DNA of 7,243 bases from a virus (IMGVR_UViG_2548876950_000015:1-7243); one strand, 5' to 3'. Shown: positions 1-7,243, counted from the first letter of the stretch. Notes: generated by a model not told the origin, from the sequence alone. Made by a program: numbers and translations.

Positions 1-1797
1 TTAGAACTCCTTCACATCTGCGCCAGAAGACACGCTCCAGATCGAAACAGGCGACCCGTTTACACCTATTAACCTTGCTTTCAACCCATTTCCGCTTGCT
101 CTTGGTACGGTTAAATTTGCAGCAGATGGATTCATAGCCCAATCTCCTCCATTTAATATGACACTCATTTCAACTACGCCACCATTATCAATATCTATTA
201 TAGGTGTTTGCACTACCGGGCTTTGTTGATCAATTGGCAGAAAGCCATTGACAATAATAGATGGTCTGAATGATGGGTTTCCCTGAACGCTAACACGAAG
301 TTGCCCACCCTTAACAAATTCTGTTGCACAAGTATTCATGACAATGCAATACGGATTTACAAAATCAAATGCATAGCAAATTGACTCCCCATCCATTGGC
401 GTGCAGTTTTCAGCAGTACAATTGGTCATGGTGGTATATTGCATTCCTGACATTCTAAATGACAACTGGTAACCGTTAACCTGAACAAGGCGCATATCCA
501 TAGAAGTGCCTATTACTTTTATTTGACCATCCCTAAAATCTTCAAATAAAACGCCAGCATATCCTTTCCCTGGATATTGTGGGAAACCGACCATTTCCAT
601 TACGCCAGAGAACGGCACATAAGAGAAGCATCCGATATAAGCACATTCAAAAATTGACTGTCTGATAACTGGTGCTGCTGATTTTCCTAAAAACAGTCCG
701 TAATAATTTCTATAAGAATCTACGTTTTCTTGTGTTAAGCCAAGCCTTCTAAACATGCAGTTTTCAACTCTACCGTTAACACAAAATGAACTCATTGAGT
801 TATCTGTTAGATCCCATTGTTTTGGTATAAAAGCACATAATGCATCCACCTGAAGAATTACTTCTCCATTTTTTGTGAGATCTATTTTGTCATTTGTTGT
901 TTTATAAAAAACTGTCGCTTCAGCCTTTCCCTGTCCTCTAATTCCCATATTGTCATAAATTGGGATTGTTTTTGATGTATTTATGTTTCCAGCAGGAGCC
1001 TCTAGAATGCATTTGTTTGAGCGGGCAAAGTTAGTTGCAAGAGTTATAGCTGTTGCGTTATCTGTGACTCCGTCAGGTTTCACCCCCCAAAATTGCATGT
1101 CGTAAGTGGTAAAATTAATTCGTCTCCATACCATCGTTCCAGTTTCTGGCTTGATTACAATTCCACCATCATCAGCCCACGCCTGAATGTTATCAACAGA
1201 CTCGAAAAAGCCGCCACCAAGGTGGTTTTCAGCATGTGTAGTGCTAGCTGCTGATGCTACGTATACAATCTGCCCTGCCTCCTCCGGAACACAGGAGCGA
1301 AGCTCTGAAAGATTGAGAAAGCGGCCAATAGCGTTAAATCCTGTTTTATCAATTAATGAATCATGTGTAGCTTTCAAGATCTCCAGCTCAATCTTTACGG
1401 TTGTGCCTCCATAACCAACCAGAGATGCGCCATCATGGCCAGAAAGCTCAGCCCTTAACTGATCTGGAGAATATTTCAGTAGATCAGGATAATAGAATTG
1501 TTGTGCACCATACGCATCATACACAGCCATGGAGTGATTCTGTACAGTTACGAACTTGGCAATCTGTCCGTTATATACAGGGTAACCAGCAGCGTTAATG
1601 ATGATTGGTTGCGAAACAGGGACGTGAGAACCATCTTCGTTCTCCACATAAACCTGAATCTGGTTTTCAGGATTTACAGGGTCAGTGTCAATTTTACCAA
1701 TATAAATTTTGCCATTGGCAACCGCTTTAAAAGAACGCGCCATAGTGAAGAGTTGCGAAGGCATCGATACGATCACATTGGCTGTAATGTCTGTCAT
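1..1797 (-). CDS. Tailspike protein: P22 gp9-type head-binding N-terminal domain fused to a divergent receptor-binding domain
   Basis: 598-aa ORF, ATG at 1797-1795 with GGAG about 10 nt upstream, TAA stop at 3-1. The first ~110 residues ([59 protein letters not shown]...KYSPDQ) match, from memory, the conserved head-binding domain of P22 gp9 and the Sf6/HK620 tailspikes. The rest does not resemble the P22 endorhamnosidase body as I recall it. Position after the immI module matches P22 synteny. Confidence 0.88.
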
Positions 1798-1855: not shown

Positions 1856-1880
1856 AAAAAAAAACCCAGCCGAAGCTGGG
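1856..1880 (-). terminator. Rho-independent terminator downstream of the antirepressor-like gene
   Basis: Read on the minus strand: 6-bp GC-rich stem CCCAGC / GCTGGG (1880-1865) with a TTCG loop, followed directly by a run of nine T (plus-strand A-run 1856-1864). Lies about 20 nt after the stop at 1900. Confidence 0.6.
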
Positions 1881-1899
1881 TCGTTGCGTTGGTTATCTG

Positions 1900-2790
1900 T
1901 CAGTAGTTATGTACTGAAGGAGGTAATTCTTTATTCTTAAGTCTCATCCATGCGGAACGATTCGTTGGTCCGTCTGGCTCATTAATATCAACATCTAGTG
2001 TGTGATTGATTAAAACGTCTCTCGCTATATCGATAATACGGGAGAACTCATAACCGCAGTCATGACATCTGCCGGAATAGTTCGATTGAATTTGTTTCAG
2101 CGCCGGATACAATTCGCGGAATAATGCCTGTGAGCGGTTGGCATAATCCCATAACCATACAAGGCTGTTTGCTTCTTTTGCAGAAAGCTCGTTGGTTTTC
2201 TTCTCTTGTTTGCCGATAAATTCACCTTCAAGCACTACCCTGTGGATGTACTCTACGGCCAGCGGGATTTGTTCAATTGAAAGTTCATCAATGCTGTCAA
2301 TACCAAAACGCTGATGAACCATATTGTATGCATCGTCATAGCGAAGTCCTTTCTTTCCTACCAGCATGTTTACTGCATCGCGTAGCGGTGTGCGTTCAGC
2401 TACTGAAGTTTTACCGCCAATACTCTTCCTCTCTTGTGTGGCAGTAACCATTGCGTCATATGCACGGATAACCTTCAGCGCAAATGCTGCGCTAATCCAC
2501 ATGGCGTAGGAGTAAACAAGCTCCTTGCACACGTAGGTTCCACCATATCGACCTTTCTTAGAAAGGACGGGATTCTTATTCTGCATATCCGCAGAATTAA
2601 AAATTTCATTAATCAATTCAATAGTTTCATTTCTACGCATGAAGAAAGCTGGCTGATGTTTTTCCTCCTTTCCAGACGCTACATGAAGGTCATTAAGCGA
2701 GTAACGACCCTCTGAATCCATATGAATCTTGACGTCAGAAATGATGATGCTATTAGTGCAATTTACAGTTGACTTTGCTAAGCTTGACAT
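1900..2790 (-). CDS. KilA-N domain antirepressor-like protein
   Basis: The ORF track extends to 2856, but that start is a GTG overlapping the upstream stop. The ATG at 2790-2788 (MSSLAKS...) has a GAGG 10 nt upstream and puts the KilA-N-like motif ([39 protein letters not shown]) near the N-terminus, as is usual for this family. Family call is from motif recollection only. Position after arc corresponds to ant in P22 immI. Confidence 0.62.
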
Positions 2791-2852
2791 ATCAATAATA
2801 CCTCGTAAGTTTTGTTGATACCGAAGCCCTGACTGTTCCCGCAGTTGGGGCT

Positions 2853-3074
2853 TCACTGTTTTTGTAAGTCACTGTAGCTATAAAGCCACTGACCACTCAT
2901 TTTTGATTTGATTGACTCTACTGAGTCACGGCAAGGAATGATTCCGCCTGACATCATTCTGATCTCCGTAAATTCACCACTCCTTATCGATTCAATGCCA
3001 TCAATGTTAACTAAAGATTTACCTCTACCAAGTGCATTCTCATAGCCAATCTCATCAACCTCAATAAACCTCAT
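2853..3074 (-). CDS. Hypothetical 73-aa protein between arc and the antirepressor-like gene
   Basis: ATG at 3074-3072 overlaps the arc TGA stop (ATGA). A GAGGGG sits about 8 nt upstream. TGA stop at 2855-2853. No family recognised. Confidence 0.4.
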
Positions 3075-3229
3075 GCCGTTATCCCCTCTCTCTTCAGGCT
3101 GTCCAACACTCGCTTGTAAATCTCAGAGTTAACAGATCGCCCGTTCTCTTCAGCTACCTTGCGCACCAAATCCAATACTTCTTTAGGCCACCGCAAATTG
3201 AACTGAGGCATTTTTCTTGCACCTTGCAT
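3071..3229 (-). CDS. arc: Arc-like ribbon-helix-helix transcriptional repressor
   Basis: Manual minus-strand translation gives [52 protein letters not shown] (52 aa), near-identical over the core to P22 Arc as I recall it (MKGMSKMPQFNLRWPREVLDLVRKVAEENGRSVNSEIYQRV...). ATG at 3229-3227 with GGAG 6 nt upstream; TGA at 3073-3071. Missing from the ORF track because it is under 60 aa. An in-frame ATG at 3250 would add 7 residues but has no SD. Confidence 0.85.
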   Translation of the reverse strand: MQGARKMPQFNLRWPKEVLDLVRKVAEENGRSVNSEIYKRVLDSLKREGITA

Positions 3230-3322
3230 ATTCAACTCCATTTCACTCATTGATAGTACCGTACTACTATTGAAAGCGTACTACTACCGTTCTAGCATGT
3301 CAACAAATAAAAGGAGAACGAC
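3230..3322. promoter_or_regulatory. Divergent mnt/arc control region with overlapping candidate promoters and operator-like repeats
   Basis: 93-bp interval between divergent arc and mnt. Inverted repeat TAGTAC-c-GTACTA at 3254-3266 inside GATAGTACCGTACTACTAT (3252-3270), whose flanks resemble the P22 arc operator as I recall it (ATGATAGAAGCACTCTACTAT). Direct repeat CGTACTACTA at 3260-3269 and 3277-3286. Candidate rightward promoter: -35 TTGAAA 3270-3275, -10 TAGCAT 3293-3298. Candidate leftward promoter: -35 TTGACA (complement of 3298-3303), -10 TACGCT (complement of 3275-3280). Confidence 0.5.
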
Positions 3323-3565
3323 GTGGCTAGAAATGATCCACAATTCAACGTAAGAATGCCTGATGAGATAAAACAGCAACTTACGCATATTGCTGCAACA
3401 AATCGCCGCTCGATAAACGCAGAGATTATTTCAGCTATCGAACTATGGATAAAAATTCATAAAGGGCAGCTAATACCTTCAAGTAGTCGAATCCTGACAA
3501 AGTCTGAGCAAGAGGCGTTTGATGTAGCTATTGATGTGTTAAAACGTGTAAGAGATGGAGGATAA
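3323..3565 (+). CDS. mnt: Mnt-like ribbon-helix-helix repressor
   Basis: 80-aa ORF with GTG start at 3323 preceded by AAGGAG (3311-3316). N-terminus MARNDPQFNVRMPDEIKQQL...NRRSINAEI resembles P22 Mnt as I recall it (MARDDPHFNFRMPMEVREKL...NGRSMNSEL). Divergent from arc, as in P22 immI. Confidence 0.85.
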   Translation: MARNDPQFNVRMPDEIKQQLTHIAATNRRSINAEIISAIELWIKIHKGQLIPSSSRILTKSEQEAFDVAIDVLKRVRDGG

Positions 3566-4530: not shown

Positions 4531-4560
4531 AAAACCCACCTGACGGTGGGTTTCATTTCT
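4531..4560. terminator. Bidirectional rho-independent terminator between convergent genes
   Basis: Hairpin CCCACC-TGAC-GGTGGG (4535-4550). On the minus strand it is followed by TTTTTTGTTGG (strong, serves the lipoprotein gene ending at 4560). On the plus strand it is followed by TTTCATTTCT (weaker, serves the 4309-4512 gene). Confidence 0.7.
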
Positions 4561-4979
4561 TAATCTTGCTTTGTAGACGGTATAAGGGATGCGTTTGCCT
4601 CTTTTGGCTTCAAGGTATACATCCCACCATTAAATGGATCAACAGCAAGCCAACCAATTAACCCACCAAACACAAGGTTTCCACCAATATACCAACCATT
4701 AGCATTGGCTTTGATTGGCAGGGTAACTGGTTCGTACCCATCCTTTTCCATAGTGATCTGGTAACTCTTTTTGCCAAAATAACTACCATCTGACTTGGCA
4801 AGAGTTACTCCTTGTGGGGTCTTACCTTGCGCAACAATCACGCCTGATTCGTCTTTTACCTTAAAGCTCGCACCGGAAGGATTGCTGTTCACTTGCACAA
4901 GCTGTGTTTCGTCACCAACAATAGTTGCGCACCCAGATAACATGATAGCGCCAGCAACGACGCCAATAATCCTCTTCAT
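4560..4979 (-). CDS. Lipoprotein with a PEGA-like beta-rich domain and a Gly-rich C-terminal segment
   Basis: Signal peptide with lipobox: MKRIIGVVAGAIMLSGC. The track ORF starts 4 codons earlier (ATG 4991, MEID...) with no SD; ATG at 4979 gives the canonical lipoprotein N-terminus. The mature region (NSNPSGASFKVKD...GKTP...ITMEKDGYEP) resembles a PEGA-type fold by motif recollection. C-terminus GWYIGGNLVFGGLIGWLAVDP is Gly-zipper-like. TAA stop at 4562-4560, then the strong terminator. Confidence 0.7.
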   Translation of the reverse strand: MKRIIGVVAGAIMLSGCATIVGDETQLVQVNSNPSGASFKVKDESGVIVAQGKTPQGVTLAKSDGSYFGKKSYQITMEKDGYEPVTLPIKANANGWYIGGNLVFGGLIGWLAVDPFNGGMYTLKPKEANASLIPSTKQD

Positions 4980-5074
4980 ATCAATTTCCATATCTAAAAA
5001 ACCGGAAACATCCTAATGACAAACCATTCAAATGTGAAGCACGAGATAAGATCAATCCATCCGTGGACGACTAA

Positions 5075-7243
5075 TTACTCCTGTGTCATTCCGCTTAGCG
5101 ATGCCACAATCCCAGCCCTCGACAAACGCTGGAACTCTTCGTTTCCTAGTGCATCGCGAATTGCTTTTACGGCGGCCTTATTTGCCATAAATCTGCGTTC
5201 CGCCGCCGCTAATGCGCCATCACTTGCCCCAACCTTAACTGCCTTTGTTGCCTCTTGAACAGCCTTTTCAATAGCGTAACGACCACTTCTGGTTGCGGAT
5301 AATTTCGCTATCGATCCTTTTGCTATCGCATCAATTGCTCCACCAGCAGCGCCACCCACTATTGCTCCAATAACACCTCCTCCAGAGAACCCTGCGATAG
5401 CGCCAGCGGTTGGAAAAGCGCCAGACAATACGCTCTCTAAAACTGGATGAAGGCCATTCTCAAGAGTGCTAATGGCTGGCATAGAGCGCCCTGTTTGTTC
5501 AACATATCGAAGTGGCTTTGTTGCAGCTCTTGCAAGTTCTCCGTATGAACTTGTAATCCTGCCAAGTTCTGGAGAATATCGACTAATTGCCTTCACGTTT
5601 TGTGGGGTAAGAATAGTCGCGATATGCTTAATTCCAGCTCCTTCAGACTTACCTCCGCGTACCCCTTGCGATACCGCATCTTGTAATATTGATGCAATTG
5701 CTGGCGCGCGTTCCGACTCAGGTAGGGCGCTTATTATTTTATGGAACTGACCTGTTCCACTTTTTGCTGAACCCTGTAACGCCTTAGATCCATTAGTTAC
5801 CAACTGATCAGTTGCAAGGTCTCTACCAAACGCTGCTTCAGCCTGTTCTTGTGCTGTAAATCTTGCCTTTGACAGATCATTAGCTTTTTGCCAGTCATCA
5901 AGAAAATCGCCATTTTGAGCCATTATGCGCATATCTTCCGTTGCTGCATCACGAAGCTCAGCCATGCGCCTTGCCGTATTTGCCTCACCAGACCTTATAT
6001 ACTTCTGCTCTGCGTCAGCAAGTTTACTTCGCCATGCCTTCATGGCATCAAACGTGATTCCTTTTTTACCAGTTTTAGCATAAGCAGATGCGAATTGTTT
6101 CATCTCAGGAGTTAGCGGCATGCCAGCCAAAATATCACCCTGAATTGTAGCGTTCAGGTTTGACATTCTGGCCTTTGCGTCAGGCATCGTGGAGCGGACG
6201 CTATCCCATGCGGCCTTTTCTGAATTTTTCATTTTATCAATACTTGCCAAAACCCTTTGTTTTATGGCTGCACTTTTTTCTGATGCAGTTCCTGCTTCAG
6301 CCCCAAACTCATCCAATGCTGAGTTAAATTTCGACTCTATTTCACTGAATGCTTTGGTGTGTGCATCCTGTGTAATTCCGGGCTTTGATGCCAGAATCCC
6401 CTCCGCCTGAGCAAGACCACGACTACCTGATCTCATGCCAGGAGTTAATGCGTTGATATCTATTCCAGCAGTATCTGCTGCTTTTGCTATTTCGTCTGAC
6501 ACATTAGCTGACTGTCTGGCAATAATCTCTCTTCCTGTACCAGACTTTGCCATTTTCGAAACATCAGCAGCGGAATTTATTGCCCCGCCACCAAGAACTT
6601 GAGGTGATTTAGAGGTTAAGATCCTTCCAGCCCCAGAAAGTATCCCCTGAGCACCAATATTGATACCACCGTTAATGGCAGCATTTTGTGCAAAGTCGCC
6701 CTCCTGATTTGCAGCATCAGCAAGAGAACCTGCAATCATGTTTCCTGCGGAACCGATATCTCCAGCGAGCTTTGCTGGCGCTCCAGCAGCTTTTGCCGCT
6801 GTGCCAATTGGCAGGAGATACCCACCAATTGTTTCACCGGCTTGCGCGTAAGGGTCTGTCGGTCGATCGACAGGGCGATAAACATCATCCAAAACCTTGG
6901 GGCCGCCAAGCCCCTGGCTGATTGCATTAATCAGACTTGCGCCACCCTGCAATACGTCAAATGGTATGTTTACCAGACCACGACCAGCCTGTTCTGCAAT
7001 TTGCCCTGCACTTTGACCACCTGTGAGCCAATCACCAGCTTGTTGCATCAATGATGGTTCTTCTTTCTGCTGCTGAGGCGGAGGGTATGCTGCATAAAAC
7101 TGATCTCTTGCTTCAGCCCATTTGTCACCAGCCTTAGGGGCAACAACCTCATCAAAATATTGCGCTTGAGCCTGTGCTTTCTGTTCTTCAGTTAACGCCT
7201 GATACTGTGGAGAAGCGATAACATCTTTCCATGCTTTAGCCAT
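5075..7243 (-). CDS. Phage DNA-ejection / DNA-transfer protein (P22 gp16/gp20-like by position and composition)
   Basis: 722-aa ORF; ATG at the window edge (7243-7241), so the true N-terminus may lie outside the window. TAA stop at 5077-5075. Ala/Gly/Gln-rich, low-complexity and helix-prone, with a Gly-zipper segment ([31 protein letters not shown]) near the C-terminus. It sits on the distal side of the accessory island, where P22 has gene 16. Product assignment is by synteny and composition, not by remembered sequence identity. Confidence 0.6.

Follow-up and report, generated by a model that had tools for sequence, protein, structure and literature searches.

Regulators of the "Bro network", which draw on the KilA-N, Bro-N, P22_AR_N, P22_AR_C, ANT and AntA domains among others and include the Ant proteins of Kapi1 and phi24B, are modular proteins that join N-terminal predicted DNA-binding domains to shared C-terminal modules. 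This shuffling was reportedly first described in 2002 by Iyer, Koonin and Aravind, who are also said to have defined the domains. The exchange of KilA-N, Bro-N, P22_AR_N and P22_AR_C is a recognized feature of this network (PMC10111431). The Ant proteins of P22, epsilon34, 611R6, N7 and CUS-3 share one domain pair, P22_AR_N (PF10547, 144-155 bits in these proteins) and P22_AR_C. The specificity of P22 Ant is broad and includes lambda CI, as summarized in PMC3064807. The Ant protein of phi24B, which has only its last 104 residues in common with P22 Ant, promotes induction and is required for prophages to be induced efficiently (PMC3064807). An N-terminal KilA-N-type domain is also found in the BstA abortive-infection proteins of P22-like prophages, where it is followed by a second, independent domain; as of 2021, BstA was the sole characterized bacterial KilA-N protein (bioRxiv 10.1101/2020.07.13.199331).

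The DNA analyzed here is a viral stretch of 7,243 nucleotides (IMGVR_UViG_2548876950_000015, referred to in its full length as the window) and comes from a P22-like (Lederbergvirus) prophage of E. coli, in which it forms the immI region, also called the "ant moron". Very probably, this locus encodes a KilA-N-swapped Ant that is translated from ATG 2790 and that is regulated and acts in the manner of P22 Ant. Such a KilA-N variant is already known: Salmonella phage Emek and E. coli prophages in RefSeq carry it in annotated form. Public databases thus contain the gene with its start and domains, and nothing new is added here beyond a lesson for annotation and an example of recombination.

Organization of the immI locus

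The placement of ant in the window matches the gene order of P22 immI, with arc upstream, the tailspike gene downstream, and mnt divergent. The genes and the terminator of the locus are as follows.

1-1797, minus strand: tailspike gene with a P22-type head-binding N terminus (open reading frame and domain search)
1863-1882, minus strand: intrinsic terminator 3' of ant, a terminator-like hairpin with a T run, where the Emek record annotates a rho-independent terminator
1900-2790, minus strand: ant coding sequence, 296 amino acids plus stop from ATG 2790, comprising KilA-N, a middle module and P22_AR_C
1900-2856, minus strand: mechanical open reading frame of ant, 318 amino acids from a GTG start
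2853-3074, minus strand: orf73, a small gene of 73 codons between arc and sar/ant (open reading frame; PHROG 11805, "unknown function", E 3e-53)
3071-3250, minus strand: arc, encoding the Arc repressor (PF03869, 91.7 bits)
3323-3565, plus strand: mnt-like repressor gene, divergent from arc-ant (Arc-like domain PF03869, 47 bits; "mnt" in Emek)
5075-7243, minus strand: DNA-transfer gene of the gp16 type, separated from arc by several small genes

The public annotations of arc (Emek, RefSeq) begin 21 nt further in, at 3229, which gives a coding sequence of 159 nt. The arc gene is 84% identical at the nucleotide level to those of P22 and epsilon34, and a promoter scan reports a promoter-like site at 3270-3298 on the plus strand, near the mnt-like gene. 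Among the annotated loci compared, orf73 is present as a hypothetical protein in Emek, 611R6 and E. coli prophages, and is absent from P22, epsilon34 and E. coli 266917_2. A possible relationship of its product to FlbD was rejected, as the match (E 0.025) falls below the cut-off and is regarded as chance.

Similar to P22 ant, the window's ant is positioned between arc and the tailspike gene, has its start codon at the same place with the same 10-nt Shine-Dalgarno spacing, abuts the sar RNA at its ATG, and is followed by a terminator. The main differences between the window and P22 are that the first 126 residues of the window's Ant are of the KilA-N type and have no detectable similarity to P22_AR_N, that the window contains the extra 73-codon gene between arc and sar/ant, that hairpin 1 of sar and the leader differ in sequence with the pairing compensated, and that the -10 hexamer of the putative P_sar is TAAGCT rather than TATACT.

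The Ant proteins of Emek (vB_SemP_Emek; AFM54341 / YP_006560573) and of E. coli prophages (WP_024236921.1 and WP_137551425.1) are encoded by the same gene as that of the window, with an identical coding length of 891 nt and the order arc-orf73-ant-terminator-tailspike, but the receptor-binding part of the tailspike differs. The coding sequence of WP_024236921.1 ("P22AR C-terminal domain-containing protein") shows no differences from that of the window in 296 codons. Emek Ant, deposited in 2012 and labeled a KilA-N domain protein in RefSeq, is 96% identical in amino acid sequence. Of 5426 complete E. coli genomes, 34 contain the exact N-terminal DNA, and in each case the annotation of the gene that carries it is P22AR C-terminal domain, Ant or KilA-N protein. 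The combination of KilA-N with P22_AR_C extends to Salmonella, Enterobacter and Klebsiella aerogenes in addition to E. coli, at identities down to 54%, and in E. coli, Salmonella and Enterobacter it is found repeatedly at the ant position.

Domain architecture and the N-terminal exchange

The ant product is divided into the following segments, with amino acid positions counted from ATG 2790.

2413-2790, minus strand: exchanged N-terminal segment, aa 1-126, which holds KilA-N and lacks nucleotide homology to the ant genes of P22 and epsilon34
2449-2736, minus strand: KilA-N domain, aa 19-114 (Pfam PF04383)
2224-2412, minus strand: conserved helical middle module, aa 127-189, shared among Ant variants (alignment)
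1987-2205, minus strand: P22_AR_C domain, aa 196-268 (PF10548)

An earlier reading of the sequence had noted a KilA-N-like motif at the N terminus of this gene, and the Pfam search identifies that domain as PF04383 at E 4e-19 to 4.6e-19, matching positions 7-104 of the 107 in the profile with a score of 68.7-68.8 bits (cut-off 23.8). The product has the APSES-like alpha/beta fold expected of KilA-N proteins. PF10548 is matched along its whole length (97 bits against a cut-off of 22.4; E ~6e-28 to 7e-28; profile positions 1-73 of 73), and in the AlphaFold model P22_AR_C folds into a helical hairpin composed of helices 204-233 and 239-263. The P22_AR_N domain (PF10547) gives no Pfam match in the ant product at E <= 0.01. 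Neither the P22_AR_C domain nor the sar RNA had been mentioned in the earlier reading.

The same reading had left in doubt whether P22 Ant belongs to the KilA-N family. The doubt was justified: canonical P22 Ant is composed of P22_AR_N and P22_AR_C and is therefore not a KilA-N protein. Kapi1 Ant, encoded at the same locus, represents a third arrangement, in which Bro-N is combined with P22_AR_C and the middle and C-terminal modules are those of the window. The middle module is common to the P22_AR_N, Bro-N and KilA-N forms compared and to a KilA-N form with another C terminus, and it is the best-conserved part of the protein; in an alignment of 56 sequences, 11 of the 13 invariant columns lie within it. 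PHROG 2812 ("unknown function") matches ant residues 1-292 at profile positions 1-286 of 288, and no NCBIfam model matches either the ant product or P22 Ant. Relatives of solved structure were found neither by single-sequence nor by 56-sequence profile searches, the middle and C-terminal modules included.

Comparison with P22 Ant places the boundary of the exchange precisely. Residues 127-296 (170 amino acids) align without gaps at 83% identity by BLASTP, which detects no similarity to P22 Ant before aa 127, and blastn homology to the ant genes of P22 and epsilon34 begins at window position 2412, that is, at codon 127. The proposed exchange of an antirepressor module thus stands for aa 1-126, which have been swapped, and does not extend to aa 127-296; as only the first 126 residues differ and the remainder is P22-like, ant is not a foreign replacement of the whole gene. 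We regard the case as ordinary domain shuffling of an already catalogued kind.

In the AlphaFold model, linkers of low pLDDT at residues 118-126 and 190-199 divide the protein into three folded segments. The breakpoint relative to P22 coincides with the first linker. At the second linker, dS in comparisons with Emek and E. coli relatives rises from 0.01-0.07 (before aa 190) to 0.24-0.28 (after aa 190), and the variant P0038, composed of KilA-N, the middle module and an unrelated C terminus, departs from the window there as well. In Emek ant, the C-terminal third differs in having a dS of 0.26, compared with ~0.01-0.02 for the N-terminal two thirds, which points to a further recombination boundary near aa 190. 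That breakpoints and shifts in divergence both fall at linkers argues that ant is a mosaic of three modules, which recombine at these linkers.

The ancestor would have been a P22-type ant gene in which the P22_AR_N segment (codons ~6-126) was replaced by a KilA-N segment, with the junction placed in the linker between domains and KilA-N itself spanning aa ~13-117. The first five codons of ant, encoding MxS(I/L)A, are similar across all types of N-terminal domain; as these codons overlap the -10 element of P_sar, the exchange appears to have left the sar promoter region in place. No donor of the KilA-N segment was found, the best relatives outside Ant, in phage genomes, being ~45-51% identical. 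As a natural case of recombination at the level of domains, the locus is clean: the N-terminal domain of Ant was swapped at a linker, and the swap could guide experiments that locate the repressor-binding part of Ant.

A chimera of this kind might also be a recombinational accident, a decaying and defective Ant devoid of antirepressor activity. The Emek record marks ant as "(Defective?)", P22_AR_N is missing from the ant product, and degraded ant genes occur in some P22-like phages, according to the epsilon34 genome paper (PMC2629481). Nevertheless, no interruption of the reading frame is seen in the examined loci or in full-length homologues from the databases, whose identity goes down to 54%. 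A Salmonella Newport homologue, 58% identical, occupies the same immI position (gp16 ... mnt-arc-ant-tailspike) and retains mnt, arc, sar and the terminator. Measured against this homologue, the KilA-N segment has a dN of 0.10 and a dS of 1.1, a dN/dS of ~0.09; judged by these rates, the KilA-N part is under purifying selection. The borders of the modules, moreover, lie in linkers and not within domains. Spread, conserved position and low dN/dS argue against the "(Defective?)" label, and we consider an accident of this type very unlikely.

The ant start and the sar RNA

The region between orf73 and ant contains two candidate starts for ant and, on the opposite strand, the sar RNA with its putative promoter.

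2776-2784, plus strand: putative extended -10 element of P_sar, TGcTAAGCT, inside ant codons 3-5 and aligned to the annotated P_sar of P22 and epsilon34
2791-2856, minus strand: 22-codon "extension" from GTG 2856, a non-coding leader antisense to sar
2791-2864, plus strand: sar antisense RNA, composed of hairpin 1 (2791-2819), a terminator hairpin (2823-2854) and a T-tract, and complementary to the ant ribosome-binding site
2801-2804, minus strand: Shine-Dalgarno sequence GAGG, with a 10-nt spacer to the in-frame ATG 2790-2788

The GTG at 2856-2854 overlaps the TGA of orf73 at 2855-2853 in the tetranucleotide GTGA. The sequence-only reading had described both this overlap and the Shine-Dalgarno-supported ATG 2790, each of which is present in the sequence, and had favored the ATG; the alignment with P22, the upstream in-frame stops in relatives, and the sar RNA at 2792-2857 bear out that preference. 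Seven independent lines of evidence speak for ATG 2790 as the start of ant translation. This codon aligns base for base with the ant ATG of P22 and epsilon34, and in P22 the sequence GGAG precedes the ATG by an identical 10-nt spacer. The start of P22 ant was reportedly fixed experimentally by Sauer et al. in 1983. The start methionine is invariant in 18 aligned homologues, and the N terminus, MxS(L/I) together with the 11 letters of the motif that follow, is conserved among KilA-N-type homologues. The alignment to PHROG 2812 begins at residue 1 of the form that starts at ATG 2790. Every public annotation examined (the Emek GenBank record and RefSeq PGAP, four E. coli prophages included) gives an 891-nt coding sequence, corresponding to positions 1900-2790.

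In the alternative, a 318-residue form would be translated from GTG 2856, with the GTGA overlap coupling it to the stop of orf73. No in-frame stop lies between 2856 and 2790, the annotators of Kapi1 selected the equivalent TTG as a start, and some gene callers give N-terminally extended Enterobacter homologues. An open frame of 22 codons, however, has a chance of about 1 in 3, (61/64)^22 = 0.35, and the 66 nt in question encode the sar RNA, which accounts for this stretch being conserved and open. The equivalent stretch is interrupted in frame by TAA in P22 and by TAG in the Salmonella Newport KilA-N homologue. Substitutions in the "extension" among relatives are few; they either change the amino acid or create a stop, and they affect the loop of the hairpin, a G-U wobble position or a weak U-G pair, a pattern that fits an RNA structure and not a coding region. 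Loci that lack orf73 have no overlap of the GTGA type, GTG 2856 itself is without a Shine-Dalgarno sequence and adjoins the 14-bp hairpin, and the Enterobacter extensions are unrelated in sequence to that of the window, with the internal methionine invariant. A start at GTG 2856 is therefore very improbable.

The assignment of ant to ATG 2790 has a consequence for annotation. Directly upstream of ant, P22-like immI regions encode the sar antisense RNA, and extension of the ant open reading frame to a GTG or TTG inside the sar terminator is an artefact, as seen in the Kapi1 record. The mechanical open reading frame of the window would repeat an artefact of this type.

The sar RNA is identified by a full-length match to Rfam RF00262 (model positions 1-68) at plus-strand positions 2792-2857, which scores 61.7 bits where the gathering score is 43 (E 2.9e-11). 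The match starts 2 nt from ATG 2790; an offset of 1-2 nt is also observed in the annotated P22 and epsilon34 loci and in six further loci, which cover Ants with P22_AR_N, Bro-N and KilA-N. The minimum-free-energy structure of the RNA has two hairpins (-29.1 kcal/mol, z -6.4). A terminator scan of the plus strand reports the 14-bp hairpin at 2823-2854, followed by ACTGTTTTTG, as a terminator-like site. The CCUC of loop 1 faces the GAGG Shine-Dalgarno sequence.

The stem of hairpin 1 was assessed by folding each of ten sar sequences separately, and its pairing is maintained by three different sequences: GUUGGU...ACUGAC in the P22-type loci, (A/G)UCAAUA...UGUUGAU in the KilA-N and Bro-N loci, and GUCGU...ACGAU in CUS-3. 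The anti-Shine-Dalgarno sequence is found in the loop of every type of hairpin 1. Applied to a MAFFT alignment of the ten sequences, RNAalifold predicts only the terminator stem, because the groups of sequences are shifted by one base in register at stem 1. In stem 2, one compensatory and one wobble change are found among relatives.

The opposite strand of the first five ant codons reads TTGCTATACT, an extended -10 element at the site annotated as P_sar in P22 and epsilon34. Transcription from this element would start ~7 nt downstream, at 2791/2792. The sequence TGCTATACT is conserved at P_sar in six relatives, from which the window differs at two positions. The -10 hexamer TAAGCT is found in the window, in Emek and in two other loci, and TATACT is conserved in the relatives. 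The putative P_sar is not reported by a consensus promoter scan, in which it falls below the threshold. Given the two departures and the outcome of the scan, the level of sar may be lower in the phage of the window.

Proposed regulation and function of the KilA-N-type Ant

By homology to P22, Mnt would repress P_ant in the lysogen. After infection, P_ant would transcribe arc-orf73-ant, and Arc would then shut off P_ant. The sar RNA would be made from the promoter inside the first ant codons and would pair with the ant ribosome-binding site, thereby blocking translation.

Searches of the literature returned no experiments on a KilA-N-type Ant (KilA-N with P22_AR_C), and we know of no mapping of the repressor-binding part of P22 Ant. 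By analogy, we infer that the KilA-N-type Ant would be an antirepressor. Like P22 Ant, it would bind immunity repressors of the lambdoid HTH + S24 type non-covalently and thus inactivate them. This activity would reside mainly in aa 127-296, the part that is common with P22 Ant, and KilA-N would play an accessory part, probably by binding DNA, and would be interchangeable with its equivalents P22_AR_N and Bro-N.

The KilA-N form could instead have another job, as a DNA-binding regulator or as a BstA-like defence or exclusion factor that makes use of the immI cassette. KilA-N is predicted to bind DNA, and a KilA-N-like N terminus is present in the BstA protein of a P22-like prophage (bioRxiv 10.1101/2020.07.13.199331). 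In addition, superinfection immunity is unaffected by phi24B Ant, and near-identical KilA-N Ants are found in phages with unrelated repressors. In contrast to BstA, however, the C-terminal part of the window's protein is that of P22 Ant, with 170 residues 83% identical to a proven antirepressor, and its gene lies in an immI locus under the full control of Mnt, Arc and sar, the purpose of which in P22 is to silence Ant. A PADLOC search for known defence-protein models returned nothing beyond a weak, partial match of aa 73-124 to the candidate PDC-S22 (39.5 bits), and no BstA model was listed. Independence from the type of repressor also fits the broad specificity of P22 Ant, lambda CI included (PMC3064807). 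Another job for the KilA-N form is thus distinctly unlikely.

It is likewise unlikely, if less so, that the middle module (aa 127-189) is the repressor-inactivating core and that the N-terminal domains target DNA sites or act on competing phages. Were this the case, KilA-N Ants would differ from P22 Ant, for example by acting on operator DNA or as exclusion factors.

For an Ant of the P22 type, with its activity mainly in aa 127-296, the relationship between N-terminal domain and repressor is informative. The C2 protein of Emek is 99% identical to P22 C2, although Emek Ant is of the KilA-N type and P22 Ant of the P22_AR_N type. Conversely, an E. coli prophage with an Ant identical to that of the window has a repressor (WP_024237240.1) that is just 31% identical to C2 over 65 amino acids. 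The idea that the type of N-terminal domain tracks the type of immunity repressor is thus contradicted by three genomes, those of Emek, P22 and the E. coli prophage. Together with the role of phi24B Ant, this lack of correspondence lends indirect support to an activity located in aa 127-296.

Gene content and putative promoter between arc and ant

Immediately downstream of arc, the ant operon of the window contains a small gene, orf73, that is read in the same direction as ant.

2853-3074, minus strand: orf73, 73 codons; PHROG 11805, function unknown
2776-2784, plus strand: putative extended -10 element of P_sar, the promoter of the antisense RNA sar, TGcTAAGCT

The arc stop codon, which overlaps orf73 in an ATGA motif, and the sar terminator form the exact borders of the orf73 insertion in the window. 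The gene is present in the P22-like phages Emek and 611R6 and in several E. coli prophages, and is missing from P22, epsilon34, and E. coli 266917_2. The presence of orf73 and the type of N-terminal domain carried by Ant are independent of each other.

The putative P_sar -10 element, TGcTAAGCT in the window, differs from the TGCTATACT observed in P22, epsilon34, 611R6, Kapi1, CUS-3, and one Salmonella Newport KilA-N locus. The two changes correspond to Ant residues 3-4, which are encoded by Ser-Leu codons here and by Ser-Ile codons in the other loci, and may weaken sar transcription in the window.

Start codons of ant and arc

In phage Kapi1 (MT813197), the "anti-repressor", which comprises Bro-N and P22_AR_C domains, is annotated at 807-1751 with a TTG start that lies within the terminator of sar (805-871). 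The ATG at 873 is almost certainly the true start of this gene. The Kapi1 annotation is over-extended by 22 codons, the same over-extension that the sequence-only reading had suspected for the window ant, from ATG 2790 to GTG 2856.

A second ambiguous start codon within the ant operon of the window is found in arc.

3071-3250, minus strand: arc, mechanical ORF of 59 aa from ATG 3250

Arc is 52 aa in the Emek and RefSeq annotations, with a start 21 nt downstream of the window ATG 3250.

Mosaic ant and tailspike genes and a predicted lipoprotein

A further Ant variant is encoded in two Salmonella prophage loci (L015, 4001-4891; L016, 606-1496) between arc/sar and the tailspike gene, the same position as that of the window ant. 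Across the KilA-N domain and the middle module, this variant is almost the same as the window Ant, differing by one amino acid in the first 189 residues, whereas its C-terminal ~107 residues are unrelated and are not P22_AR_C.

1-1797, minus strand: tailspike, mosaic
4560-4991, minus strand: 143-aa ORF with signal peptide and lipobox (LSGC); PHROG 6823, function unknown

The receptor-binding part of the tailspike (1-1352) shares 95% identity with an entry of Stx phage TL-2011b annotated as "hypothetical protein", and the sequence from ~1451-1487 upward, including the head-binding N terminus, matches the tailspike genes of P22-like phages, among them HK620 and 611R6. Given its signal peptide and lipobox, the product of the 143-aa ORF is likely a lipoprotein, and the ORF may represent a moron or exclusion-type gene inside the ant moron.
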